In this document: positions 2,709-19,427 of the stretch, in pieces
Numbering within the stretch: position 1 is the first letter of the stretch
Layout of the letters: the number at the start of each line of letters is the position of its first letter
The notes under the pieces: generated by a model
Told to the model about the DNA's origin: nothing
Databases searched by the model: none
What the model saw: the letters and a program-made list of their open reading frames with translations, nothing else
Assembly (NCBI GenBank): GCA_017465885.1
Contig: JAFTVG010000014.1
Span: 6,819-70,818 of the forward strand
Reading direction: 5' to 3'
From: Clostridia bacterium
GTDB taxonomy: Bacteria > Bacillota > Clostridia > Oscillospirales > CAG-272
DNA length: 64,000 nt
Program-made: the position numbers and the translations under genes

Positions 2709-2849
2709 TCAGGAGTTTATCCCTTCGTTTGTTTTTTTACGCGACGCGCTTTTTTTTGCAACGATCAACACGATCACTGCTCCCACAAGCACTGCAAGCA
2801 CCACGGCGGTTACCGCAAACACTGCGGTGGGGTCGCCTGTAGCGGGAGG
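2709..2849 (-). other. C-terminal cell-wall sorting signal of the GH92 protein (PPATG motif + hydrophobic helix + basic tail)
   Basis: The protein ends ...DPDNPPATGDPTAVFAVTAVVLAVLVGAVIVLIVAKKSASRKKTNEGINS. PPATG (nt 2835-2849) fits the (S/P)PXTG class used by clostridial sortases. It is preceded by a Pro/Glu/Ser linker PPVEPSEPVEPSEPSEDPSEDP. Confidence 0.55.
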
Positions 2850-5800
2850 ATTATCGGGATCCTCGGAGGGATCCTCGGAGGGCTCGGAGGGTTCTACCGG
2901 CTCGGAGGGCTCCACGGGAGGAGTCTGTCCGCCGGGGATCTCATCAAGACCGCCTGCAATATCCTGCTCGCCGATGAATTCCACTTCTGCAAGCGAGCTG
3001 CCGCCAAAGAGGGTCAGCTTATAGAAGCGATAGTTGCCCTGCAGCTCTTCGTCAATCGCGAAGGGTTTGATGAAGTTGTTGCAAAGGAAGGTGATCTCCT
3101 CTTCCTCAAGGACGGTCGCCCAGCTTTCGCCGTCGTTGGATACCTCAAGCTTGAAGGAGGTGGGTGCCTTGTTTACCGTGGAGGAGGTGAGGGTGATCAT
3201 CGAGATCTTGGAGCAGGTGGCGTCAAAGATCAGCTCTTCACCGTCGGAAATGGTGGCGGAGGTCAGGCTGTTGTCGTCAAACAGATCCTTCACCTTTTCA
3301 AGACCGCTTTCGATGGTACTCAGCACCACTGCCAGATCCTTCTTGCCTGCCTCGGGCTTTTGTCCGGGTGCGGTCAGAGAGGTGGGCTCGCTGTCCTCAG
3401 CACTGCCCCACTCGGAGGGCTTTGCACCCATCTCAAACTCGATGGTGCAGCCTGTGCTGAGCATTTCGTGGGTGAGGAACATCTTGTTGTAGCTCTCGCC
3501 ATTGACCTTTGCAGACTGAATGTACACGTTTTCGTCGGAATTGTTATTCGCAACGATCACGATATCGTTGCCGTTATCCAGATGCACGGTCACCTTGTCA
3601 AAGAGGGGAGAGCCGATCACGTATTCGCCCGATGCCACGCTGTAGGGATAGAAGCCCAGAGCGTTGAAGACGTACCAAGCCGACATTTCGCCGTTGTCCT
3701 CGTCACCGGGATAGCCCTGACCGATCTCAGAGCCCACGTATACGTGTCTGAGGACCTCTCTGACGTATTCTTGTACCTTATAGGGAGTGGAGGAGAAGGC
3801 GTAAGTGTAGATCACGTGGTGAGCGGGCTGGTTATTGTGCTCGTACTGACCCATCTTCACTTCCTTGAACTCGCTGATCTCGTGGTGTACCGAAGCCAGC
3901 TCAACCACCTTCTTCATTGCATCGTAGCTGTCATCAAAGAGCTGATCCAGCTTTGCGGAGAGCGCTTCCTCGCCGCCGTACAGGTTTGCAAGACCCTCGC
4001 CGTCAAATACTGCGGGGAAGGCGTTGACCCAACCTACCGACTCGGTGAAGTCGTACTTGTCACCGTTCCACTGTGCAGGATTGAAGTTGGTGGAGGACCA
4101 GATGCCTGCGGTGGACTTGCCCATGAAGAAGTCTGCCTTTTCGTTGAAGAGCAGAGCGTAATTCTTGCAACGGTTGAGGTAGTAAGCCGCCTCGTCCTCA
4201 AGTCCCATCGCCTCTGCCATCTTGTAGATGCCGTAGTCGTTGATGAAGCCCTCAATGGAGCTGGAATATGCCTCTTGCACGAAGGCGCCGGTTACGGGAT
4301 TATCGTTTGCAATGTAGCCCTTATAGGGAGCGGTGTTGTTTTCCTTTCTGCCGCCTGCGGTCATATTGGAGGAGTATGCCGCTGCATTCTTCACCATTGA
4401 CTCAAAGGCTGCCTGATAGTCAAACTCCACGCCCTTGATAAAGGCGTCTGCAAAGATCACGTCGCTGGAGGTACCGACCATACAGTTCACAGGACCGGGA
4501 CCCATCCATCTGGGGATCCAGCCGCTTTCCTTGTAGTGGCCCACGATACCGTCCACGTACTGCCCTGCTCTGTCTGCTGTAAACAGCGAGTAGCCGGGCC
4601 AAGCGGTACGATAAGTATCCCAGAAGCCGTTGTTGGTGTAAAGCATACCCTCGGTCTTCTTGCCGCTCTTATAAGGCGAGCCGTAGACCCACTTGGGTTC
4701 TTCGTTGGTGCCCTCGTTTTCGGAGAAGAGGCTGGGGAATGCGTACATTCTGTAAATGGAGGAATAGAAGGATACCAGCTCGTGATAGCTTGCACCCTCG
4801 ATCTCAAACTTGCCGCACAGATCGTCCCATTCCTTCTGTGCCGATGCCAAAACGGTGTCGAAGGTATCGTTTGCACCGATCTCGAGAGCCAGGTTGTGCG
4901 CCGCCTGATCGTAGCTGATGAAGGAGGTCGCCAGCTTCAAGGTCACCACGGTGGTGCCCTTTTCAAATGCGGCGATGCCCTTGACGCCGCTGACCACAGA
5001 AGCGTCTGCCCAAGCGGTATCAAACTGACCGTAAACGTACATCGCGGGCGAGCCGTGGGAGGTCTTCGCCTTGAAGGTCTTGCCATCCTCAAGGAAGGAC
5101 AGGCTTCCCGAGCCCCACATGCTGTCGAAGATCACGTTTACGTTTTCACTGCCCTCGGGGAAGGTGAAGCGCAGATATGCGCCGTGCAGGGTGGGCGTAA
5201 CCTCGATCTTAACGCCCGATGCGGCAGACCCTTCCTCTAACAAGACGCTGTAGAGATGAGCCGTTGCCTTTTCGTTCTTATGGCTGTAGCCCGCTTCTCT
5301 GTTCTGAGAAGAGATCTGAATCGAGGTGATGCCGTCGGTGCCGTTTTCGGTGTTCACACCGGTGTTGGGCATAAACTGCATGGAGCCGTAGCTTCCGATC
5401 CAGAAGTTGGGGGCGTGGATGATGGAGATAGAATCAAGAGGATTACCCGAACGGGTCTGCTGATAGGTATAAGGCAGAGTGGGGGCGTCAGCGTTGTTCA
5501 CGGGAGTGAAGAAGTTGAAGCCGCCGGGCATAGTCACGCCGGGAGTACACATACCGCGGGAGAAGGCGATATCGTTGTTGGTTCCACGCAGAATGTTGAC
5601 GTAGTCGGAAAGATGTTCGTTTACCACCTCAGCCTTGTCCTCGATCTTCAGATCGTCGAAGAAGGTGACGAAGCGGGAGGCGTCTACCGCATTTTCCATA
5701 TCGAAGTATACGCAGATCTTTTCGATGGTCTTGCCCTCGGCAACCTCACCGATTGCGCTTTCCACGTAGTTCCACTGAGCGGTATACAGGCATTCGCCCT

Positions 5801-8800
5801 CAGCCTGACCTGCAGGGGTCATCAAAGAACCGTACTGATCCTTTGCACCAAGCTCGGACAGGTACGTTCCGTCGGTGAACTTCAGGTCGATGACCACGCG
5901 GCAGGAGGTGTATTCGTAATCGTAGGAATGAATGTTGAACAGACCCGGGAAGATCACGTAGCTCAGTCTTGTGTTCTTGGTTACGGGAATGGACAGATCC
6001 TTGAAGATCACGTTCTTGGCGTAGGTCTTGTCGGTTGCGGTCTGCTCGCCGTATACGGCAAGGCATCTGAAGCCGCTCCACGCACCGGGAGTGTTGCACT
6101 CGGTGGCAATGGGACCAAAGCCGATCTCGGTGTTCATACCGGGGATCTCCTCGGGGATCAGGCTCTCGTCAAGCTGGGTATATAGGGTCAGCTCGGAGAA
6201 CTGGGTGTGGGCGTTGCCGCCGTTTTCAAGAACCTCCAGCTTGTAGTAGAGGTAGGAGGTGGCGTTGGCAATACCGAAGAGCTGCTCCTCAAAATAGTCG
6301 GAGAACTCCACGCCGGTACGGCTGTCAAGCTTTACCCAATCGGTGCCGTCCACAGAGCCGTAGAAGTTCCACTTTCTGGGGCTTCTGGAGATGTGGTCGT
6401 TGGCGGAGGTGATAGAATAGCCCTTCACCACCCGGGATTCCTTCAGTGCGAAGACCACGGTGAAAGTGGAGCCCGAGCAGACCATCTTGGTAGAGGTCTT
6501 GCCGTCAAAGAGGTTTGCCTTGGACTCGCCGCCGCCAAGGTCTTCCGAGCCAGAAACGGTGGAAGCATCCACCTCTGCCTTTACGGGTTTAGCTTCCTCT
6601 TCCTCCACCTTCGCGGAAGGATCTACAAAGAGCTGCCACTCGGAGAACTGCACCACCTGCAGACCCACCGCGTCTTGTCCTACGTTGGAGGTAACGTCCA
6701 GCTTGTAGTAGAGATACTCGGTGGTGTTGTTGAAGGTGTAGGTGTAGTAGGTATTTCTTTCGGGCATATCCTCGTCGCTGCGCACGTCAAGGGCTACCCA
6801 GTTCTCGCCATCGTTTGATCCGTAGAGTGTCCAGTCCTTGGGGTCTCTGGGATCGTGGTCGTTGGCAGAAGCGATCTTGTACATATTCACTGCCGCAGGT
6901 GCGGTCAGCTTTGCGGATACCCACAGAGTGGTGGTGTGGGGGATGCACACCTTGGAGTCTACCGATCCGTCAAAGATCTGCAGAATGCCCTGACCGCCGT
7001 CAAGAGCGGCAGAGCCCTTTACGGTGGAGGTGTCTACAGTCTGTTTTTCGGGCTCGGGCTTCTCTTCTTCGGCGGTCTCTGCAACGAAGAGCTGCCACTC
7101 GGAGAACTGTACCACCTGCAGACCCACCGCATCCTGTCCTACGTTGGAGGTAACGTCCAGCTTGTAGTAGAGATACTCGGTAGTATTGTCGAAGGTGTAG
7201 GTGTAGTAGGTATTTCTTTCGGGCATATCCTCGTCGCTGCGCACGTCAAGGGCTACCCAGTTCTCGCCATCGTTTGATCCGTAGAGCGTCCAGTCCTTGG
7301 GGTCTCTGGGATCATGGTCGTTGGCAGAAGCGATCTTGTACATATTAACTGCCGCAGGTGCGGTCAGCTTTGCGGATACCCACAGAGTGGTGGTGTGGGG
7401 GATGCACACCTTGGAATCTACCGATCCGTCAAAGATCTGCAGAATGCCCTGACCGCCGTCAAGAGCGGCAGAGCCCTTTACGGTGGAGGTGTCTACAGTC
7501 TGATTTTCGGGCTCGGCGACCTGCTCCTCTTCGGAAACGTATTCAAGCTGCAGCTCGGCAAACTGAATAAGGTCGTAGCCCCAAGGGTCAAGACCGTGAT
7601 TTGCGGTCACTTCCAGCTTGTAGTATTCGTAAGACTCTTCGTTTTCAAAGCCAAAGGCGTAAAGGGTCTTTCTGTCTGGCAGATCGATATTTTCGCGGTC
7701 ATCAAGAAGGGTCCAGCTCTCGCCGTCCTTTGAGCCGTAAAGCTTCCAGCTCTTGGGGTCTCTTGCGGGAGCGTCGGAAGCCGTACCGATAACGTAGCCG
7801 TTTACCACAGCGGAGGCGACCAGCTTCACGGACACCCACATAGAGCCGTTATAGGTGGTGCACAGCTTGCTGTCAAGGCTGCAGTCGAACAGCTTGTCAA
7901 GCCCTTCGCCTGCATTTGAAACCTCAGAGCCTTTTACGGTAGAAGCGTCCACTTGGACCTCTACCTGCTCTTCAGCCGCTTCGCTCTTGTATCCGAACTT
8001 CAATTCGGACATATGGGTGATGTTCAGTCCCACGTTATCGGTGCCGACGGCGTTCATCTCCGCCAGCTTATAATAAAGATATTCGGTGGTGTTTTCAAAG
8101 GTATAGGTCTTGGTCTCGAAGAAGTTTGCAAAGGTCTCCTCTTCTCTTGCATCAAGCAGATCCCAGCTTGCGCCGTCCTTTGAGCCGTAAAGCTTCCAGC
8201 TCTTGGGGTCACGCTTGTGATGGTCGTTGCAAACCGAGACAGAATAGAAGTTTGCCGCAAAGGCTTCCTTCAACTTCACCGATACCCAGACGTTCACGTT
8301 GCCGTCTGCGATCCACTTGGTGGAGGTGGCGCCGTCAAACAGATTTGCCTTCACCTCGGTACCGTTCAAGTCCTTGGTGCCGTCGTAGCTGTCGATAGCA
8401 GGATAGCTCACGCTGGAATCCACGTAGCCTTCGCCGCCATCTTCAAAGGACTCGGTGAAGAGATCCAGATTTGAAAACTGGGTCAGGCTTCCGCCGCAGT
8501 TGGAGGTCACTTCAAACTTGTACCATTTGAAAGCCTTCTTGTTTTCAAAGCCAAAGGTCTTGGTCTGCTGACGGGAGGTGAAGGACACACCCTCACGCAC
8601 GTCAAGGGAGACCCAGCTCTCTCCGTCCTTGGAGCCAAAGAGCGTCCAGTTCTTGGGGTCTCTTGCTGGCTCGTCATTTGCAGAAGCAATAGAATAGGAA
8701 CGAACCACTGCTTCCTTATCCAGCGCAAAGACAACGTACACGTTTGAACCGGTAGACAGGAACTTGGTGCCGGTCTTGCCGTCAAACAGATTGTATTTGC

Positions 8801-9095
8801 ACTCGCTTCCCAGATAATCCTCAGAGCCGTCTACCGTCTCGTAAAGAACGGTCAAGCCCTTTCCGCCGCCCGTGGGGGAGGAGGTGTTGATCACGCCCTG
8901 AAGAAGTCCTCCTTCAAGGGTGGAAGAAAGGAAGCCGTCGCTGTCGGTTTCTTCAAAGGAGGTCTCAAAGTGCACCTTATCCTTGCCTGCACCCTCAGCG
9001 ACCACGGAAAGACCGCCGAAAAGCTGTACTGCATTTGCAAAAACAAGAGAACACACGAGGACGTATGCCAATAGTTTTTTAAATACCGTTTTCAT
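2709..9095 (-). CDS. giant (2128 aa) cell-surface GH92-family alpha-mannosidase with seven F5/8-type-C (CBM32-like) modules
   Basis: N-terminal signal peptide MKTVFKKLLAYVLVCSLVFANA. Six N-terminal and one C-terminal discoidin-like modules (recurrent NLFDG..T.K, SANDxxxRDPKxWxLYGSxDGxxW, YYKLE motifs). Central region carries GH92-type motifs (GMCTPGVTMPGGFNFFTP, YEHNNQPAHHVIYTYAF, PGDEDNGEMSAWYVFNALGFYP). SD GAGAGG lies upstream of the ATG at 9095. Confidence 0.85.
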   Translation of the reverse strand: MKTVFKKLLAYVLVCSLVFANAVQLFGGLSVVAEGAGKDKVHFETSFEETDSDGFLSSTLEGGLLQGVINTSSPTGGGKGLTVLYETVDGSEDYLGSECKYNLFDGKTGTKFLSTGSNVYVVFALDKEAVVRSYSIASANDEPARDPKNWTLFGSKDGESWVSLDVREGVSFTSRQQTKTFGFENKKAFKWYKFEVTSNCGGSLTQFSNLDLFTESFEDGGEGYVDSSVSYPAIDSYDGTKDLNGTEVKANLFDGATSTKWIADGNVNVWVSVKLKEAFAANFYSVSVCNDHHKRDPKSWKLYGSKDGASWDLLDAREEETFANFFETKTYTFENTTEYLYYKLAEMNAVGTDNVGLNITHMSELKFGYKSEAAEEQVEVQVDASTVKGSEVSNAGEGLDKLFDCSLDSKLCTTYNGSMWVSVKLVASAVVNGYVIGTASDAPARDPKSWKLYGSKDGESWTLLDDRENIDLPDRKTLYAFGFENEESYEYYKLEVTANHGLDPWGYDLIQFAELQLEYVSEEEQVAEPENQTVDTSTVKGSAALDGGQGILQIFDGSVDSKVCIPHTTTLWVSAKLTAPAAVNMYKIASANDHDPRDPKDWTLYGSNDGENWVALDVRSDEDMPERNTYYTYTFDNTTEYLYYKLDVTSNVGQDAVGLQVVQFSEWQLFVAETAEEEKPEPEKQTVDTSTVKGSAALDGGQGILQIFDGSVDSKVCIPHTTTLWVSAKLTAPAAVNMYKIASANDHDPRDPKDWTLYGSNDGENWVALDVRSDEDMPERNTYYTYTFNNTTEYLYYKLDVTSNVGQDAVGLQVVQFSEWQLFVDPSAKVEEEEAKPVKAEVDASTVSGSEDLGGGESKANLFDGKTSTKMVCSGSTFTVVFALKESRVVKGYSITSANDHISRSPRKWNFYGSVDGTDWVKLDSRTGVEFSDYFEEQLFGIANATSYLYYKLEVLENGGNAHTQFSELTLYTQLDESLIPEEIPGMNTEIGFGPIATECNTPGAWSGFRCLAVYGEQTATDKTYAKNVIFKDLSIPVTKNTRLSYVIFPGLFNIHSYDYEYTSCRVVIDLKFTDGTYLSELGAKDQYGSLMTPAGQAEGECLYTAQWNYVESAIGEVAEGKTIEKICVYFDMENAVDASRFVTFFDDLKIEDKAEVVNEHLSDYVNILRGTNNDIAFSRGMCTPGVTMPGGFNFFTPVNNADAPTLPYTYQQTRSGNPLDSISIIHAPNFWIGSYGSMQFMPNTGVNTENGTDGITSIQISSQNREAGYSHKNEKATAHLYSVLLEEGSAASGVKIEVTPTLHGAYLRFTFPEGSENVNVIFDSMWGSGSLSFLEDGKTFKAKTSHGSPAMYVYGQFDTAWADASVVSGVKGIAAFEKGTTVVTLKLATSFISYDQAAHNLALEIGANDTFDTVLASAQKEWDDLCGKFEIEGASYHELVSFYSSIYRMYAFPSLFSENEGTNEEPKWVYGSPYKSGKKTEGMLYTNNGFWDTYRTAWPGYSLFTADRAGQYVDGIVGHYKESGWIPRWMGPGPVNCMVGTSSDVIFADAFIKGVEFDYQAAFESMVKNAAAYSSNMTAGGRKENNTAPYKGYIANDNPVTGAFVQEAYSSSIEGFINDYGIYKMAEAMGLEDEAAYYLNRCKNYALLFNEKADFFMGKSTAGIWSSTNFNPAQWNGDKYDFTESVGWVNAFPAVFDGEGLANLYGGEEALSAKLDQLFDDSYDAMKKVVELASVHHEISEFKEVKMGQYEHNNQPAHHVIYTYAFSSTPYKVQEYVREVLRHVYVGSEIGQGYPGDEDNGEMSAWYVFNALGFYPYSVASGEYVIGSPLFDKVTVHLDNGNDIVIVANNNSDENVYIQSAKVNGESYNKMFLTHEMLSTGCTIEFEMGAKPSEWGSAEDSEPTSLTAPGQKPEAGKKDLAVVLSTIESGLEKVKDLFDDNSLTSATISDGEELIFDATCSKISMITLTSSTVNKAPTSFKLEVSNDGESWATVLEEEEITFLCNNFIKPFAIDEELQGNYRFYKLTLFGGSSLAEVEFIGEQDIAGGLDEIPGGQTPPVEPSEPVEPSEPSEDPSEDPDNPPATGDPTAVFAVTAVVLAVLVGAVIVLIVAKKSASRKKTNEGINS
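6631..7548. repeat. tandem 2 x 459-bp near-identical duplication inside the GH92 gene (one whole CBM32-like module + linker)
   Basis: AGCTGCCACTCGGAGAACTG... starts at both 6631 and 7090. ACGGTGGAGGTGTCTACAGT occurs at 7021 and 7480. I counted about a dozen mismatches by eye, so identity is high. The two protein copies differ in the module only by TFDNTTEY vs TFNNTTEY. Confidence 0.9.
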
Positions 9096-12412: not shown

Positions 12413-12448
12413 GGCTGAGTTATTATGACACGAAAGAAGGGATACGAA

Positions 12449-13930
12449 ATGCGCATCGGTTTTGATAACGAAAAATATCTTTCTCTGCAGTCCGACTGTA
12501 TCAGACAGCGGATCGAGCAGTTTGGAGGAAAGCTGTATCTTGAGCTTGGCGGCAAGCTTTTTGACGACTACCACGCCTCAAGAGTTCTGCCCGGATTTGA
12601 GCCCGACAGCAAGATCAGAATGTTCTCTCAGCTCAAGGACGACGTGGAGATCATCATCTCCATCAACGCCGCAGATATCGAGAAGAACAAAAAGCGGGGC
12701 GATCTCGGCATCACATACGACGATGACGTTTTAAGGCTCACCGACGCCTTCCGCGCCCTCGGTTTTCTTGTGGGCAGCGTGTGTATCACCCAGTACACCG
12801 GTCAGCCCGGTGCAGACGCCTTCATCCGCAGACTCCAGAGTCTGGGCATCAAGAGCTATCTCCACTATTCCATCGAGGGCTATCCCTACAACGTGAAAAA
12901 GATCGTCAGCGAAGAGGGCTACGGCAAAAACGAGTATATCGAGACCTCCCGTCCTCTGGTGCTGGTCACCGCGCCCGGCCCCGGCAGCGGCAAGATGGCA
13001 ACCTGTCTTTCCCAGCTCTACCACGAGCATAAGAGAGGACAAAAAGCGGGATACGCCAAGTTTGAAACCTTCCCTATCTGGAACTTGCCCTTAAAGCATC
13101 CCGTAAACATCGCCTATGAAGCGGCAACCGCCGATCTTGACGATATGAATATGATCGATCCCTTCCACCTGGAGGCATACGGCAAGACCGCCGTCAACTA
13201 CAACCGTGACGTGGAGGTCTTCCCCGTGCTGAAGGCAATGATGGAAAAGATCCTCGGTCATTCCCCCTACAAATCTCCCACCGATATGGGCGTGAATATG
13301 GTGGGCTTTTGCATCATCAACGAGGACGTGGTCTGCCGCGCTTCCCAAATGGAGGTGATCCGCCGCTACTATCAGACGCAGGTCGCCATCAGACAGGGCG
13401 AGTCGGATGAGACACAGAAGGAAACCATCGAGCTGTTAATGCAAAAAGCCGACATTTCCCCCGATATGTGTCCTGCGATAAAAGCAGCTCTTGACCGTGC
13501 CGAAGAAACGGGCGCGCCTGCAGGAGCGATGGATCTTGGAAACGGAACCGTGGTCACCGGGAAAACCAGCTCGCTGCTTGGCCCCTCCGCCGCTCTGCTG
13601 TTAAACGCGCTGAAGTCTCTTGCGGGGATCGACGACGAGGTGGATCTGATCAGCCCCCAAACCCTTGAACCCATCTGCCGTTTAAAGACCGAAAATTTAA
13701 AGAATCACAACCCGAGGCTTCATTCCGACGAGGTGCTGATCGCCCTGTCCATCAGCTCGGTAACCAACCCCGATGCCGCAAGAGCGTTGGCACAGCTGAG
13801 CAATCTGCACGGATGTGACGCTCACTTCTCGGTCATCCTTTCAACGGTGGATGAAAAGACCTACAAAAAGCTGGGCATCAACGTGACAAGCGAGCCCAAA
13901 TATCAGATCAGAAAGCTTTACCACGGCTGA
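12449..13930 (+). CDS. DUF1846 / UPF0371 family protein
   Basis: N-terminus MRIGFDNEKYLSLQSDCIRQRIEQFGGKLYLELGGKLFDDYHASRVLPGFEPDSKI is characteristic of the ~490-aa UPF0371 family. The start at 12449 sits after AAGGGA. The track start at 12425 is also possible. Confidence 0.75.
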   Translation: MRIGFDNEKYLSLQSDCIRQRIEQFGGKLYLELGGKLFDDYHASRVLPGFEPDSKIRMFSQLKDDVEIIISINAADIEKNKKRGDLGITYDDDVLRLTDAFRALGFLVGSVCITQYTGQPGADAFIRRLQSLGIKSYLHYSIEGYPYNVKKIVSEEGYGKNEYIETSRPLVLVTAPGPGSGKMATCLSQLYHEHKRGQKAGYAKFETFPIWNLPLKHPVNIAYEAATADLDDMNMIDPFHLEAYGKTAVNYNRDVEVFPVLKAMMEKILGHSPYKSPTDMGVNMVGFCIINEDVVCRASQMEVIRRYYQTQVAIRQGESDETQKETIELLMQKADISPDMCPAIKAALDRAEETGAPAGAMDLGNGTVVTGKTSSLLGPSAALLLNALKSLAGIDDEVDLISPQTLEPICRLKTENLKNHNPRLHSDEVLIALSISSVTNPDAARALAQLSNLHGCDAHFSVILSTVDEKTYKKLGINVTSEPKYQIRKLYHG

Positions 13931-13943
13931 TTCTCATATATCC

Positions 13944-13976
13944 AAAACGGCTTCCCTTCGCGGGAAGCCGTTTTTA
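13944..13976. terminator. bidirectional terminator between convergent genes
   Basis: AAAACGGCTTCCC-TTCGC-GGGAAGCCGTTTTT. Confidence 0.8.
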
Positions 13977-13993: not shown

Positions 13994-14770
13994 TCATCCC
14001 TTCATTTTCAGAGCGCATCGGTAGGCGTGGGGCGGAATGCCGAATTTTCTTTTAAAAAGCTTGATAAAATAATACTGGTTTTCATATCCGCACAGCTCGG
14101 CAACGGCAGAAATCTTTTCGTCCGTTGTTTCTAAAAGCAGGGCGGCGTGGGAAAGGCGGATGTCATTGAGATATGCGCTTGGCGTACAGCCGAACTCCTT
14201 CTTAAAAAAGCGATAGAAGGTCGCATTTGAGCAATTGATCTCCGATGCCAGCTCCTCAGGGGAGATCCCGCGGGAAAAACGGTCAAGAATGTATTTCTTG
14301 ATCCTCTCCTTTTGAGGGGCTTCTCTCGTTTTCTTTTCGCCAAGCTCAAGCAGCTCCCCTGCAAGAATGGCTATGTTGCCACGGCTGTTTTCGGGCTCGT
14401 TTAACAGTCTGCCGATCCGCTCGCCCATTCGCTGTGCCGTTTTTCCCGTAAGACAAACGGGAAAAGAAAACAGGTCGTCAACACGGAAGCCGTTTACGTA
14501 AAACTCCAAAAAGATCCAGCGCGCCCCCATTTTCCCCGACGCAGAGTCGTTATGATGCACGATTCTCTGGACCGATCCCGCAGGTGCAATAAACAAGCAG
14601 CCTGAAGGGACGGTATACGTCTGACCGCCGTCAAGGGAAAGGTCATACCATCCTTCTGTCGCCTGCACGATCGAAAGACAGGACAGACTCTTCACGTGGG
14701 TCAGTCCCTCACAGCCGCAGTACATCGAAGAAACGCTCCAATTTCTAATTTCCAAGCTCTCCATCTTCAT
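13994..14770 (-). CDS. AraC-family transcriptional regulator (cupin-like sensor + HTH_18)
   Basis: C-terminal IKKYILDRFSRGISPEELASEINCSNATFYRFFKKEFGCTPSAYLNDIRLSHAALLL...YENQYYFIKLFKRKFGIPPHAY. AAAGGAG spacing favours the ATG at 14770 over 14776. Confidence 0.85.
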   Translation of the reverse strand: MKMESLEIRNWSVSSMYCGCEGLTHVKSLSCLSIVQATEGWYDLSLDGGQTYTVPSGCLFIAPAGSVQRIVHHNDSASGKMGARWIFLEFYVNGFRVDDLFSFPVCLTGKTAQRMGERIGRLLNEPENSRGNIAILAGELLELGEKKTREAPQKERIKKYILDRFSRGISPEELASEINCSNATFYRFFKKEFGCTPSAYLNDIRLSHAALLLETTDEKISAVAELCGYENQYYFIKLFKRKFGIPPHAYRCALKMKG

Positions 14771-14805
14771 ACCCATACTCCTTTGAGAATATAGTACAAC
14801 TTTTT

Positions 14806-14876
14806 TATACCGTTGTCAATTGTCTTTTTTGAAAAAATCGGTATACTGATGATAGACAGTATACTTTTAGTATACC
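14806..14876. promoter_or_regulatory. AraC/GRE divergent control region with four GTATAC-type boxes
   Basis: TATACC 14806-14811, CGGTATACT 14839-14847, AGTATACT 14858-14865 and AGTATACC 14869-14876. A possible promoter is TTGTCT (14820-14825), 16 nt, TATACT (14842-14847). Confidence 0.4.
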
Positions 14877-14894
14877 GAGAGCAGAAAGGATGCG

Positions 14895-17045
14895 GTGATA
14901 GATATGATTACCTTTTCAGGCGCTTTTCCGCGCCCCATCAGACTAACGGAAGAAACAAGACGCTTTGCCTACGAATCCTTGAAGGGCAAATACGGAGATG
15001 AAGCCAAAAGCACGCTCTCCATCTCACTTGACCACATAGAGGGGCTTGACGAGCTCTCCACCTCAAAGCAATGTGCCATTGCAATGACCGAGGTGGCAAA
15101 GCGCGCCCCCTTGCGCATCTGCCCCCACGAATCGGTCAGCGGTGCTGCAACTTTAGGCGGTGCCTTTCTTGCCGGCGGGCTTGCCAACTATAATGGAAAA
15201 AACCTGCTTCCGGGCACCGATCACCTGACCCTCGGATTTATTGACGCCGTCAACCTGGGTATTGACGTCTATGAGAAAAAAATACAACAACGGAAGAACG
15301 ATCCCGCTCTGACCGCCCGTCAAATCGAGGTGCTTGACACCCTGCAGGCATCTGTTGACGCCCTGCGCATCTATCACCGAAGATATATGGAGGCACTGGC
15401 AGAAATAAAGCCAGAAAATGCCGAAAATCTGAAAAACGTTCCCTTTTTGCCACCCGCATCCTTCAAGGAGGCGGTTCAAAGCCTTTGGTTTCTCTTTTCC
15501 TTTGCAAGGCTTCTTGGAAACTGGCCGGGGATCGGAAGGATCGACGTGCTTTTGGGTCCGTACCTGGATGAGGACTTGAAAAAGGGTGTCATCACCATTG
15601 AAGAGGCGAGGGAGTTTCTTGCGGGCTTTTTCATCAAGGGATGTGAATGGATCGAAAGTGCTCCCACGAGAGGCTCGGGAGATGCGCAGACCTATCAAAA
15701 CATCGTTTTGGGCGGTCTGATCCGTGAAAACGGCATTCTCAGGGAGGCGTCAAACGAAGTGACCTACCTGATCCTTGAGATCATTGAGGAACTGCCCATC
15801 GGTGACTTTCCCATCACCGTGCGAATGCGCAAGGACAGCCCTGAGCGTTTAAAAGAATTAACGGCGCGGGCAATCCGATGCGGAGGGGGAACGGTGGCGG
15901 TCTACAACGAGGAGTTGATCTTTGACAGCATGGTGCGCTTTGGGTATCCCGAGGAGGAGATCGTTGACTTTGCCAACGACGGTTGCTGGGAGGTGCAGAT
16001 CCCCGGAAAGACCTGCTTTTCTTACTACCCCTTTGACGGACTACGCATACTTTTAAACGACACGCTGAGGCTTCACACCGACATCCCTGCCCACTTTGAC
16101 AATTATGCGTCACTATACGACTGCTTCCTTCGAAATTTGGAAAAACACCTTTCGCGCATCAAGCAGTATACTCTTGACAGATATATCACAAGGGACGAGG
16201 AGGGCAACGAGTACTTTAAAGAAAACGCCCCCTGCGCCTTTGTTTCCCTTCTTACCGACGACTGCATCAGCAAGGCACGGTATTACCACGAGGGAGGCGC
16301 ACGCTACACCATTCTTTCCCCCCACATTGGCGGTGTTCCCGATATCGGTAACAGCCTTTACGCCATTGACAGACTGGTATTTAAGGATAAGCTCATTTCC
16401 TTTGACGGTCTGATGAGGGCGCTGAAAAACGATTGGGCAAACGAAGAATATATCCGTCAATACGCACTGAACAAATACGCCTATTTCGGAAATGACAACG
16501 ATGAAGCCGATGCATACGTGACCCGCTTTCTTGATGACTACGGAAAAATGCTTGCGCCCAACAAGGAAGATCGGTTAATCCGCTTCCCTGCGGGGGTAAG
16601 CACCTTCGGTCGGCAGATCAATTGGGCGCCCTACCGCCTTGCCGTGCCCTTCGGAAAAAAGGCGGGCGAGATCCTTTCGGGCAATCTCTCCCCCACCCCC
16701 AACACCGATATGGAGGGGGCAAGTGCCGTGATCCGCTCCTACTGCAAAAGCGATCTCGCCGCACTCACCACGGGATGTGCTTTAGATCTCAAGCTCGATC
16801 CCGGCGCTATTGAGCATCCAAAGGGCATAGAGGTGCTTTGCGCGCTTATTGACGGATTTGTGGAGCTGGGAGGATATTTTATGCAGATCGACGTGGTTTC
16901 GGCAGAAATGCTGAGAGATGCGCAGGCGCATCCCGAGGACTATAAAAACCTGTCCGTGCGGGTATCGGGCTGGAACGCCCGCTTTGTCAGCTTAGACGAG
17001 CAATGGCAAAGAATGATCATTGAGCGCACCGAGCAAAAGAGATAG
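14895..17045 (+). CDS. glycyl-radical enzyme, PFL2/dehydratase-like class, unusually short (716 aa)
   Basis: C-terminal glycyl-radical motif SVRVSGWNARFV (Gly692, nt 16968-16970). Thiyl loop NDGCWEVQ with Cys364 and Glu366 (nt 15984-15992). Cys-to-Gly distance of 328 aa is typical of GREs. An in-frame TAG at 14868-14870 forbids a longer N-terminus. GTG 14895 or ATG 14904 could be the start. Confidence 0.85.
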   Translation: MIDMITFSGAFPRPIRLTEETRRFAYESLKGKYGDEAKSTLSISLDHIEGLDELSTSKQCAIAMTEVAKRAPLRICPHESVSGAATLGGAFLAGGLANYNGKNLLPGTDHLTLGFIDAVNLGIDVYEKKIQQRKNDPALTARQIEVLDTLQASVDALRIYHRRYMEALAEIKPENAENLKNVPFLPPASFKEAVQSLWFLFSFARLLGNWPGIGRIDVLLGPYLDEDLKKGVITIEEAREFLAGFFIKGCEWIESAPTRGSGDAQTYQNIVLGGLIRENGILREASNEVTYLILEIIEELPIGDFPITVRMRKDSPERLKELTARAIRCGGGTVAVYNEELIFDSMVRFGYPEEEIVDFANDGCWEVQIPGKTCFSYYPFDGLRILLNDTLRLHTDIPAHFDNYASLYDCFLRNLEKHLSRIKQYTLDRYITRDEEGNEYFKENAPCAFVSLLTDDCISKARYYHEGGARYTILSPHIGGVPDIGNSLYAIDRLVFKDKLISFDGLMRALKNDWANEEYIRQYALNKYAYFGNDNDEADAYVTRFLDDYGKMLAPNKEDRLIRFPAGVSTFGRQINWAPYRLAVPFGKKAGEILSGNLSPTPNTDMEGASAVIRSYCKSDLAALTTGCALDLKLDPGAIEHPKGIEVLCALIDGFVELGGYFMQIDVVSAEMLRDAQAHPEDYKNLSVRVSGWNARFVSLDEQWQRMIIERTEQKR

Positions 17046-17057
17046 AGGAGAGGACAG

Positions 17058-17945
17058 ATGAACGTACTGCGTATTCAGCGGTTCTGCACCGCCGACGGTC
17101 CGGGGATACGAACCACCGTCTTTTTAAAGGGATGTCCCCTTCATTGCCGCTGGTGCCATAATCCCGAGTCGCAAAAAAGTCTTTCGCAGATCTTTTTCAC
17201 CCCCGAGCGGTGTATCGGATGCGGACTTTGTCAAAAGGCTTGTCCTCAAAGCGCCCACCGTTTTTCAGACACCCACTCCTACCTACGCGATCTTTGCTCA
17301 GGGTGCGGCGCTTGCGCCAAATACTGTCCAACCGACGCATTAGAGCAGGCGGGAACGATCCTTTCTACCGACGAAATCCTTGAAATCGTGGAAAAAGACC
17401 GCGCGTTTTATGGAAAACAGGGCGGGCTGACCCTTTCGGGCGGTGAGCCCTTGATGCGGAGAGGGGACTGCATCGCTCTTCTTTCCAAAGCCAAGGAAAG
17501 AGGCATTCACACCGTGATCGAAAGCTGCGGTGTTTTTGACAGCGGCTCGATCCCCGCTCTTTCGTCCCTTTGCGATCTTATGCTTTTTGACTTGAAGGAC
17601 AGCGATCCCGTGCGCTTTTATGAAAACACGGGCGGACAGCTTGAAACCGTTTTAAGCAATCTTTACGCCCTTGACCGCGCGGGCGTTCAAACCCGCCTGC
17701 GGCTCATTCTTCTTGCGGGCGTGAACGATCACGACGAGCATCTTTCAAGGATTGCAGAGATCTACCGCTCCCTTTCGTGCTGTACTGGTGCGGAGGTCCT
17801 TGCCCACCATCCCGCAGGGCGTGCAAAATACGCCCAGCTTGATATGGAATACACCGATCTTGACAGCTACACGCCGCAAGACAGTCAGCTTTGCGCATTT
17901 AAGGAAAAGCTCAGCGCTCTGGGTGTACCTCTTGTAAATGATTGA
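17058..17945 (+). CDS. glycyl-radical enzyme activating enzyme (radical SAM)
   Basis: CPLHCRWCHN (CX3CX2C) near the N-terminus. Two ferredoxin-like motifs, CIGCGLCQKACP and CSGCGACAKYCP. GGEPL motif. SD GAGGAGAGG. Confidence 0.9.
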   Translation: MNVLRIQRFCTADGPGIRTTVFLKGCPLHCRWCHNPESQKSLSQIFFTPERCIGCGLCQKACPQSAHRFSDTHSYLRDLCSGCGACAKYCPTDALEQAGTILSTDEILEIVEKDRAFYGKQGGLTLSGGEPLMRRGDCIALLSKAKERGIHTVIESCGVFDSGSIPALSSLCDLMLFDLKDSDPVRFYENTGGQLETVLSNLYALDRAGVQTRLRLILLAGVNDHDEHLSRIAEIYRSLSCCTGAEVLAHHPAGRAKYAQLDMEYTDLDSYTPQDSQLCAFKEKLSALGVPLVND

Positions 17946-17971
17946 GCGCAGTCGTTTTTCTCCAACCGCAA

Positions 17972-17997
17972 GGTATACAATCTTTTGATTGTATACC
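17972..17997. promoter_or_regulatory. perfect 11-bp-arm palindrome GGTATACAATC-TTTT-GATTGTATACC just after the activase gene
   Basis: Seen directly. No U-run follows, so it is not a classical terminator. It shares the GTATAC core and TTTT spacer with the boxes upstream of the GRE gene. Confidence 0.45.
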
Positions 17998-18136
17998 GGT
18001 GCGCCTACCTTGGCTATGAAGTCCATTCGGGGCACATCGTTCATAAATGATCTTAAAATTTTTCTTTTTAAAACGTTTAACTTTCTGAAATTCGGGCATA
18101 TAATGCGCTTGAACGAAAAAGAAAGGAGATCAAACG

Positions 18137-18385
18137 ATGAAAGACAAGATCGAGATGCACAACGTGGATTTAAAAGAGTTCGTAAGCGTGGTGGAGAGCT
18201 GCAAGGGCGAGGTCTACCTGATCACCGATGAAGGCGACAAGCTGAATTTGAAGAGCAGACTTTGCCGCGTGATCGGACTGATCAATCTGGTGGAAGCAGG
18301 CAGACTGAGCGATGCAAAGCTGATCTGCACTGACCCTGATGATGAATCAAAGCTCTTCAGATTCAATTTGTTTGGACACGTTTAG
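18137..18385 (+). CDS. small (82 aa) hypothetical protein
   Basis: ORF with SD AAAGGAGA 7 nt upstream. A TATAAT lies at ~18098. A terminator hairpin follows (AGAACCGG...CCGGTTCTTTTC, 18388-18423). I recognise no domain. Confidence 0.6.
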   Translation: MKDKIEMHNVDLKEFVSVVESCKGEVYLITDEGDKLNLKSRLCRVIGLINLVEAGRLSDAKLICTDPDDESKLFRFNLFGHV

Positions 18386-18506
18386 AAAGAACCGGCTGTG
18401 ATATACACGACCGGTTCTTTTCTCATTTCTATTGACTTTTTTTCTCCCTTGCAGTATACTGTACTCAAGGAAGATCTTCCTCTCTGATTGTTTTTTGGAG
18501 CGTTCT

Positions 18507-19427
18507 ATGAGCTTTTTTATCACCTTAACGGCAGTTGCCACCATGCTTTTATACGCCCTTCCCGGCTTTTTGCTGGTGAAAACAAAGGCGGTTTCCCCCT
18601 CTGCCATTCCCGCATTCACCAAATTTCTTCTTTACGTTTGTCAGCCCTGCTTGACCTTCAACTCCCTTTCAAAGATCTCCTTTTCCGCCGAATCGGTCAA
18701 GAATCTGCTCCTTTGCCTTGCATTGACCCTCGGGCTTCAAGGAATTTTGATTCTGGTCTACTATCTTTTGTTCCGCAAAAAGAGGGAGGATATCTCCTGG
18801 CGTCTGGTCAACCTTGCCGCCGTCTTTTCCAACTGCGGCTTTATGGGCGTGCCTCTTCTTGAAAAGCTGCTGCCCGACCATCCCGAGGTTGCCGCATATT
18901 CTTGCGTTTTTGCCCTTTCAATGCATATTCTCGGCTGGTCTGTGGGTCTTTACATCATTTCAAGAGACAAAAAATTTATTTCTGCCAAAAAGATCTTCAT
19001 TAATCCCGCCACCCTCGCGCTGGCGGTGGCTCTTCCCTTCTTTTTCACAGGACGCTCCCTGCCCTCCGCTCTTTTTGACGTAATCGCCCTTCTTGCCAAG
19101 ACCTCCACGGTGATTTGCATGATGACCATGGGGATGCGTCTTGCCACCGTGCCCGTAAAAAGGATCTTCAATAACAAACAGCAATATCTTGCGGTGCTGC
19201 TCAATCAGTTCGTTTTCCCCCTCTTTACCTTTGCAGTCTTGTATTTTCTGCCCATTGACGGAGCGCTGAAAGCCACTCTTATCATCCTTTCCGCCTGCCC
19301 CGTTGCAAGCATGGTGCAAAACTATGCCGAGCTTTTGGGTCAAGGGCAGGACAAAGCCGCCAATATGGTGCTTCTGGGCACTCTTTCAAGCGTGCTGACC
19401 GTTCCCCTCATCTGCCTGCTTTTATAA
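18507..19427 (+). CDS. AEC (auxin efflux carrier) family transporter
   Basis: ~10 TM helices. N-terminus MSFFITLTAVATMLLYALPGFLLVK and C-terminal half typical of PF03547-type permeases. The ATG at 18507 sits after GGAG. The upstream part of the track ORF lacks an SD. Confidence 0.8.
   Translation: MSFFITLTAVATMLLYALPGFLLVKTKAVSPSAIPAFTKFLLYVCQPCLTFNSLSKISFSAESVKNLLLCLALTLGLQGILILVYYLLFRKKREDISWRLVNLAAVFSNCGFMGVPLLEKLLPDHPEVAAYSCVFALSMHILGWSVGLYIISRDKKFISAKKIFINPATLALAVALPFFFTGRSLPSALFDVIALLAKTSTVICMMTMGMRLATVPVKRIFNNKQQYLAVLLNQFVFPLFTFAVLYFLPIDGALKATLIILSACPVASMVQNYAELLGQGQDKAANMVLLGTLSSVLTVPLICLLL

Follow-up and report, generated by a model that had tools for sequence, protein, structure and literature searches.

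A compact glycyl radical enzyme, its activase and its relatives in gut, rumen and digester Clostridia

Is a glycyl radical enzyme (GRE) that is markedly shorter than its textbook relatives complete, and if so, what might it do? The question is raised by a locus at 13994-19427 of a 64,000-nucleotide stretch of a Clostridia bacterium contig (GenBank JAFTVG010000014.1, positions 6,819 to 70,818), the whole of which is called the window here. An initial annotation, made from the DNA letters alone, described five genes there as one unit: an unusually short GRE, its activase, a divergent AraC-family regulator, an orphan protein of 82 amino acids (aa) and an AEC-family permease. Our analysis places the enzyme within a known superfamily, in a subfamily that is new and uncharacterised, with a compact N-terminus and a pocket signature of its own. 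The reading that we favour, with somewhat better than even confidence, is a two-gene operon of the GRE and its radical S-adenosylmethionine (SAM) activase, joined by an AraC regulator in ~40% of loci, whose enzyme would carry out a 1,2-elimination on a small hydroxylated metabolite. Gene content, motifs, predicted fold, clade membership and synteny are observed here; reaction type, kind of substrate and induction through AraC are inferred.

The compact enzyme and its clade

The protein is a genuine Cys-x-Glu member of the GRE superfamily. Both Pfam models expected of such an enzyme were matched far above their cut-offs: PFL-like (PF02901) at 2e-74, with 251.7 bits versus 24.3, and Gly_radical (PF01228) at 2.2e-21, with 76.8 bits versus 22.2. 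Translation confirmed the two motifs on which the initial annotation rested, the glycyl radical loop RVSGW with Gly689 (16959-16973) and the Cys loop GCWE with Cys361, Trp362 and Glu363 (15981-15992). These had been reported as Gly692, Cys364 and Glu366; residues are numbered here on a 713-aa product unless stated, and the 716-aa numbering is three higher. The RVSGW loop is invariant in the family and fits the superfamily requirement for RVxG[FWY] near the C-terminus. A profile alignment to glycerol dehydratase (GD; 1r8w) pairs Cys361/Glu363 with GD Cys433/Glu435 and, by alignment only, His107 of the GTDHLT segment (15213-15230) with the catalytic GD His164. The AlphaFold model (pLDDT 89.3, pTM 0.91) predicts a ten-stranded beta/alpha barrel, and Foldseek listed 50 GRE chains for it at TMq 0.74-0.83. 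Superposed on all the solved eliminases and isomerases, the predicted model gave TM 0.79-0.83 at 20-24% identity, with no stand-out closest relative.

The in-frame TAG at 14868-14870 that had been said to bar a longer N-terminus is present in the sequence. The reported length of 716 aa corresponds to an open reading frame (ORF) from GTG 14895, which exists, but ATG 14904 is the likelier start because it lies ~11 nt downstream of an AAAGGA ribosome-binding site (14887-14892), and because its 713-aa product is 100% identical to a database entry of that length (P0001) and agrees with the gene call in a same-species contig (L010). The GRE gene thus most likely occupies 14904-17045 of the plus strand.

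Two homolog searches describe the surrounding clade. In a word-indexed protein cluster search, the GRE matched over 120 homolog clusters, which are 49-58% identical to it, almost without exception 700-740 aa long and named solely "pyruvate formate lyase family protein" or "hypothetical". An exhaustive search of 50%-identity representatives gave ~18 full-length clusters (696-741 aa, 40-51% identity) at 460-777 bits. The next scores are no higher than 317 bits, and with them the ordinary GREs of 740-820 aa set in; the clade is therefore discrete. Compactness is not unique to it, since the same representative list holds other GREs of ~700-750 aa at ~30% identity. A genome scan with the family motifs FANDGCWE and SGWNARF gave at least 592 species genomes, and the window itself is 100% identical to a metagenome-assembled genome (MAG) from water-deer rectum. 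All 80 retrieved loci come from Clostridia or other Bacillota, nearly all MAG-labelled, and their sources are rumen, hindgut, human gut, poultry and digesters. Together, these sequence comparisons delineate a distinct clade of ~700-740 aa, none of whose members is characterised, in Clostridia of the gut, rumen and digesters. The enzyme is short, as first described, though a large clade normally has this length and there are other GREs of similar size.

We consider it close to impossible that the short GRE is an artefact, whether of gene truncation, of decay into a pseudogene or of mis-assembly. What might suggest one is only its length relative to textbook GREs. Over 120 clusters and hundreds of genomes show the same length, the catalytic motifs are invariant, the model of the full barrel is confident, and the promoter, ribosome-binding site and upstream stop fit the called start. 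The latter features and the equally long homologs also rule out a frameshift or a hidden longer N-terminus. Two longer relatives (964 and 875 aa), considered as fusions that might point to a function, gave no such lead: one carries Laminin_G_3 on a truncated GRE and is probably a chimeric gene call, and the other has no extra domain.

The initial annotation put the shortfall at 70-125 N-terminal residues. The protein is indeed shorter, but only ~56-58 residues are accounted for by a remodelled N-terminal region ahead of the barrel, as judged by hidden Markov model (HMM) matches and hhalign; the rest comes from shorter internal loops (~18 residues relative to GD, ~39 relative to YbiW). The alignment of the family profile to GD begins at family residue 96, equivalent to GD residue 152, and ahead of it the sole family-GD match is a marginal one around a P-x-x-I...E-x-V-G segment. 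Against E. coli YbiW/PflD, hhalign paired family residues 103-712 with YbiW 161-809 (probability 100%), while family residues 1-102 could not be aligned with YbiW residues 1-160. The MAFFT placement of N-terminal gaps against YbiW/PflD conflicts with the local HMM matches, and these figures give the size of the shortfall only, not deletion boundaries. The pre-barrel helices form the conserved GRE dimer interface, according to a 2026 review (PMC13450708), which makes an altered oligomeric state possible: trimming of this region may have produced a quaternary structure unlike the canonical GRE dimer. The shortened region would also offer a test of how much of that interface a GRE requires.

The conserved pocket and the proposed reaction

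Pocket residues were placed by sequence alignment to solved structures, a mapping that was checked against PMC7077986 for HypD and against PMC13450708, and their conservation was assessed in 86 members of the family whose identities reach as low as 40%. His107 and Thr109 are invariant (86/86), as is the N-D-G-C-W-E segment (358-363). In the STFGRQ strand (Ser566-Gln571; 16599-16616), which aligns with the beta-8 strand of HypD (Thr645) and GD (Tyr640), the S, T, F, G and R are each conserved in 85-86 of the 86. Invariant or nearly so are, in addition, W207, G209, D260, Q262, Y264, Q265, N266, T370, F372, Y374, D378, Q571 and R578. Within this set, W207, D260, Q262, Y264, W362, Y374 and STFGRQ make up the family signature. 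As aligned, the dehydratase-type Cys/Glu/His triad is kept and the substrate-specifying residues of HypD and GD are not. The predicted pocket is unlike that of any known GRE.

Such strict conservation across 86 members argues for a single shared substrate specificity. The invariant Arg570 of strand beta-8, putatively facing inward together with Ser566 and Thr567, plus Ser258, Asp260 and Gln262, suggests a polar substrate that is perhaps carboxylated, otherwise anionic, or zwitterionic. The enzyme of the window departs from its relatives at a few positions: it has Thr263 where 73 of the 86 members have His, at the position of the essential HypD Asp339, and Gly104 and Asp106 at two positions that are Ser in most members. 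Its subclade may thus have a pocket or proton relay slightly unlike that of the main clade.

The partner enzyme is a radical SAM activase of 295 aa (17058-17945, plus strand), whose start lies 12 nt after the GRE stop codon. It passed TIGR02494 (279.6 bits versus a cut-off of 174.35) and contains, by Pfam, a Radical_SAM domain and two ferredoxin-like Fer4 Cys motifs, in agreement with its first description as a two-ferredoxin-motif activase. Its CX3CX2C motif reads CPLHCRWC (17133-17156). In the proposed mechanism, the [4Fe-4S] cluster held by this motif and S-adenosylmethionine would abstract a hydrogen atom from Gly689 of RVSGW, and the stable glycyl radical would give rise to a thiyl radical on Cys361 of GCWE. 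This thiyl would pull a hydrogen atom off the small hydroxylated substrate, with Glu363 and His107 putatively providing acid/base catalysis and helping the leaving group to depart in a 1,2-elimination, most likely a dehydration or a related C-X cleavage, after which the hydrogen atom would be given back to the product. The roles of the Cys, Glu and His residues follow PMC13450708 and PMC7077986, and that of GD His164 follows PMC13450708. The product may then enter general metabolism through housekeeping enzymes, since no product-handling gene travels with the module.

The same pocket could be read as that of a GRE that decarboxylates an (aryl)acetate-type acid, in which Arg570 would bind the carboxylate and an aromatic pocket the ring. 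Enzymes of the hydroxyphenylacetate decarboxylase type have a Cys-x-Glu motif, and the family pocket combines the invariant Arg with invariant aromatics (W207, Y264, W362, F372, Y374 and F568). Similarity to solved decarboxylases is lower, however, at 226 bits for 7e7l and 160 bits for 2y8n versus 300-336 bits for eliminases, and the NCBIfam decarboxylase models scored 128-186 bits versus cut-offs of 1100-1150. No recurrent small-subunit gene stands beside the family. We regard decarboxylation as quite improbable, and as less likely than the isomerase chemistry considered below.

The module, its putative regulation and its surroundings

The AraC-family regulator (260 aa, 13994-14776, minus strand) is divergent from the GRE, as first described. 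It has HTH_18 (3.4e-22) and HTH_AraC (8.4e-19) matches, both in its C-terminal 100 aa, and no Pfam domain match in its N-terminal 150 aa. The spacer between the two genes (14777-14903, read on both strands) holds the araC promoter on the minus strand (TTGACA 14819-14814, 17-nt spacer, TACTAT 14796-14791) back-to-back with a promoter-like site for the GRE (TTGTCT-16-TATACT, 14820-14847). The near-consensus araC pair, which reads TGTCAAT ... ATAGTA on the plus strand, is recognisable in the AraC-GRE spacers of ~25 distant loci. A conserved motif in these spacers had been considered as a leader RNA and proved to be this -35/-10 pair. The fold of the GRE 5' untranslated region (5'UTR) was not significant (z = -0.57), and Rfam matched nothing within the locus, so no riboswitch family was found in the AraC-GRE spacer.

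Just past the activase stop codon lies a perfect 11-bp hairpin, GGTATACAATC-TTTT-GATTGTATACC (17970-18000, plus strand), that has no T-run and may mark the end of the operon. The heptamer GGTATAC occurs in 16 copies across the window versus ~2 expected, a number reached in 0 of 100 shuffles. Inverted GGTATAC pairs flank the GRE-activase operon on both sides: the pair at 14840/14870 overlaps the -10 box and 5'UTR of the GRE, and the pair at 17972/17991 forms the 11-bp hairpin. The heptamer could be a regulator site, a methylase site or a repeat element.

Synteny was surveyed over the 80 related loci, each taken with flanks of at most 10 kb, using our own ORF calls and clustering 1089 proteins. 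The GRE cluster was found in 76 loci, with the activase directly downstream in 53 of the 76; the AraC cluster was found in 32 loci and stood directly upstream and divergent in ~30 of the 76 (~40%). No other partner recurred among the 1089 ORFs of the 80 loci, the next commonest cluster being present in 5 loci. The small recurrent neighbour clusters looked housekeeping-like by sequence inspection, and among 137 close neighbours scanned with Pfam, no family was shared by more than two, nor was there the association with product-processing genes that is seen for eliminases. The core of the locus is thus the GRE and its activase, often with AraC, a self-contained module found in many different genomic contexts.

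The larger unit first described is not supported by this comparison. It would be a five-gene catabolic island in which the AEC permease imports a small molecule, the substrate, that induces through AraC. All five genes are adjacent, four of them on one strand, in both the window and the same-species contig L010. The 89%, 72% and 69% relatives keep AraC-GRE-activase, and what comes next is a contig end, a giant surface protein or mobile-element genes; in the 72% and 69% relatives, the genes that follow are unrelated. The 82-aa and AEC genes lie downstream of the GRE only in this species (the window and L010) among the 80 loci, and an AEC homolog occurs in just one other locus (L053), ~2 kb upstream of the GRE rather than downstream.

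Both genes also have promoter-like sites of their own. That of the 82-aa ORF (18137-18385, plus strand) is TTAACT-16-TATAAT (18077-18104), and the gene has a strong ribosome-binding site and is followed by a hairpin and T-tract. Far from being an orphan, its product belongs to a conserved small-protein family with no Pfam domain, which counts at least 168 clusters (50-62% identity) from Oscillospiraceae/Ruminococcaceae and whose members elsewhere (L093-L097) sit in a fixed spoVAC-spoVAD / phosphoglucomutase / ABC-ATPase context that contains no GRE. The AEC ORF (18432-19427, plus strand) matches Mem_trans (5e-20), which upholds its assignment as an AEC-family permease; it probably starts at ATG 18507 (306 aa) rather than at 18432, and TTGACT-17-TATACT (18432-18460) precedes this start. 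The two genes would thus be transcription units separate from the GRE-activase operon, and because they are species-limited and have their own promoter-like sites, AEC import does not appear to be a trait of the GRE family. We consider the five-gene island improbable.

In the 69% relative (L009, 6503-12709), the genes that flank AraC-GRE-activase are TnpV, HTH_Tnp and DUF4143/AAA_14. This is consistent with a module that may there lie on or beside a mobile element, and with its highly variable genomic context overall.

Several points weigh against an eliminase encoded by a regulated operon. Known GRE eliminases are usually accompanied by aldehyde- or product-processing genes or by microcompartments, and the absence of product-processing genes here would be atypical for one. 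With the AraC gene missing from over half of the loci, regulation is not uniform, and some loci have no activase directly downstream, as judged by crude ORF calling. The clade has no biochemically characterised member, and the pocket assignments derive from alignments of sequences rather than from model coordinates. Arylacetate decarboxylases carry Cys-x-Glu too. Finally, the initial annotation had taken Cys-x-Glu as common to the 1,2-eliminases; its conservation across GRE eliminases is borne out, but GRE isomerases carry it as well (PMC13450708), so elimination is not the sole compatible chemistry.

Farther from the module, the annotated neighbours in the window include a GH92 surface protein, a PfkB kinase, a class II aldolase, DUF1846, a two-component system and ABC exporters. 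The Pfam annotation of these neighbours found no microcompartment genes, as the initial annotation had stated, nor any aldehyde-processing genes. A 2128-aa ORF (2709-9095, minus strand) combines a GH92 catalytic domain of the alpha-mannosidase type with several F5/8 type C (discoidin) carbohydrate-binding domains and probably degrades glycans at the cell surface. A Gut-1 RNA (Rfam RF01706; 11980-12054, minus strand; 70.2 bits versus a gathering score of 50), an orphan small RNA motif from gut metagenomes, lies between the class II aldolase and DUF1846 genes. The DUF1846 gene (12425-13930, plus strand; PRK13663, 834 bits) lies immediately upstream of the AraC gene and is followed by a strong terminator-like hairpin (13944-13974); it is present in the same-species contigs (L010-L012) and is not kept beside the GRE elsewhere.

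GREs in gut microbiomes take part in the formation of trimethylamine, p-cresol, skatole and H2S precursors and in hydroxyproline use, and assigning a substrate to this clade would add a reaction to the metabolism of gut anaerobes. Our data suggest no new catalytic principle and leave the paradigm of GRE chemistry unchanged. Uncharacterised GRE clades are numerous, which makes one more of them only moderately surprising. We found no paper that describes the compact clade, nor one that ties a function-unassigned GRE to an AraC regulator. Whole GRE clades still await experimental validation according to the 2026 review (PMC13450708), which lists every characterised class, describes no compact one in the sections consulted, and nowhere contains the words truncated, shorter or uncharacterized. 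The clade is a well-defined target, being widespread, compact and strictly conserved in its pocket, and the native AraC sensor and promoter present in many genomes could serve as a reporter for the inducing substrate. We see the chances as evenly balanced that it represents a new functional GRE class, with a reaction or substrate beyond those characterised, that handles a common metabolite of the herbivore and human gut through a self-contained enzyme-activase-sensor module.

Comparison with characterised glycyl radical enzymes

Scored in bits against the cut-offs of curated NCBIfam models, the GRE missed every equivalog and subfamily threshold widely. The PFL2/glycerol dehydratase subfamily model (TIGR01774) gave 301.4 versus 678.2, with a match spanning residues 175-714 only, and the best equivalog match was HypD (NF043068; 258 versus 1100), followed by the PflD type (NF007437; 226 versus 1109). 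Among the models for the sulfonate GREs IslA, HpsG and HpfG (NF048009, NF048011), HpfG gave 204.3 and HpsG 200.3, each versus 1000, and the choline trimethylamine-lyase CutC (TIGR04394) gave 187.6 versus 1050. Pyruvate formate-lyase (TIGR01255) gave 75 versus 994, and its adjacent Cys-Cys pair is absent from the GRE loop D-G-C-W-E, which has one Cys. Identity to every solved GRE is 20-27%, roughly equidistant from eliminases and isomerases. The enzyme might still be a shortened ortholog of HypD, glycerol or propanediol dehydratase, CutC or a sulfonate lyase/dehydratase, acting on the same substrate. In its favour are the HypD equivalog match, the best single-sequence match in the PDB, which is to the hydroxyproline-type dehydratase HpyG (8ID1; 1.3e-61), and three HypD pocket positions that are kept or similar (W207, S258, Y264). 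Equivalog scores 4-5 fold under their cut-offs, the low identity to solved enzymes and the pocket replacements described below make such orthology very unlikely, and it is effectively excluded by these sequence comparisons.

Among the closest known systems are the B12-independent diol dehydratases. GD of Clostridium butyricum (1R8W/1R9D) is the best profile match of the family (336 bits), and the 1,2-propanediol dehydratase (PD) of Roseburia inulinivorans (5I2A/5I2G) is its best Foldseek match (4.9e-39, TM 0.83). The family shares with them the Cys-x-Glu loop, the equivalent of His164, a glycine loop of the form RVxG[YW] and an activase that bears two ferredoxin-like motifs. Identity to these enzymes is only 23-24%, however, and the family is 74-130 residues shorter, reads GCWE where GD has GCVE, and has no dhaT/aldehyde dehydrogenase or microcompartment genes nearby. 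GD Ser282 and Asp447 are reportedly diol-binding residues, from work by O'Brien et al. in 2004; in the family alignment, they correspond to Gly209, beside a 2-residue deletion, and Tyr374, so the diol-binding set appears to be lost though the His is kept. On beta-8, GD Tyr640/Ser642/Ile644 are replaced by Ser566/Phe568/Arg570.

The hydroxyproline-type dehydratases, which besides HpyG include HypD (6VXC) and HpzG (8IOF), differ at other positions. HypD Trp277 is kept as W207, Ser334 as S258 (Phe in GD), and Phe340, like GD Tyr339, is similar to Y264. Next to the 2-residue deletion, HypD Trp277-Asp278-Ala279 and GD Gly280-His281-Ser282 both align with family Trp207-Pro208-Gly209, which places Pro208 at the essential Asp278; the essential Asp339 is likewise replaced, by His/Thr263. 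The carboxylate binders Thr645, which lies on the substrate-binding beta-8 strand (PMC7077986), and Tyr450 become Phe568 and Phe377, and beta-8 Leu643 and Cys647 become Ser566 and the invariant Arg570. Of the essential HypD residues compared (Asp278, Asp339, Ser334, Phe340, Tyr450 and Thr645), the family thus has similar residues only at the positions of Ser334 and Phe340.

The isomerases offer a serious rival to elimination: a YbiW/PflD/HplG-type isomerase or ring-opening enzyme would rearrange a cyclic or phosphorylated substrate in a redox-neutral way. YbiW and PflD (E. coli; 8ID7, 8YJO, 8ID0) carry Cys-x-Glu and the aligned His on a GRE fold that superposes at TM 0.79-0.83, and the similarity of the family to them equals that to the eliminases (8id7 TM 0.83; 29% identity over 599 columns by hhalign, 26-27% by MAFFT). 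A phosphate or a carboxylate could be bound by the invariant Arg570, though YbiW has Ala at that position. The family is 52-97 residues shorter, fails to align with YbiW over its full length, scores far below the PflD-type equivalog cut-off given above and has no recurrent PTS, sugar kinase or aldolase genes beside it, so that the sugar-phosphate context of these isomerases is missing. We therefore rate an isomerase as unlikely, though clearly less so than a decarboxylase, and continue to prefer a 1,2-elimination.

A last point of comparison is Archaeoglobus fulgidus PFL2 (2F3O), the function of which is still debated (PMC13450708). At 776 aa, it is itself relatively short, and its glycyl loop RVAGWSAYF resembles the RVSGWNARF of the family. 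PFL2 differs in being archaeal and tetrameric, with an N-terminal region of normal length, and the match to it is at 304 bits and ~23% identity.

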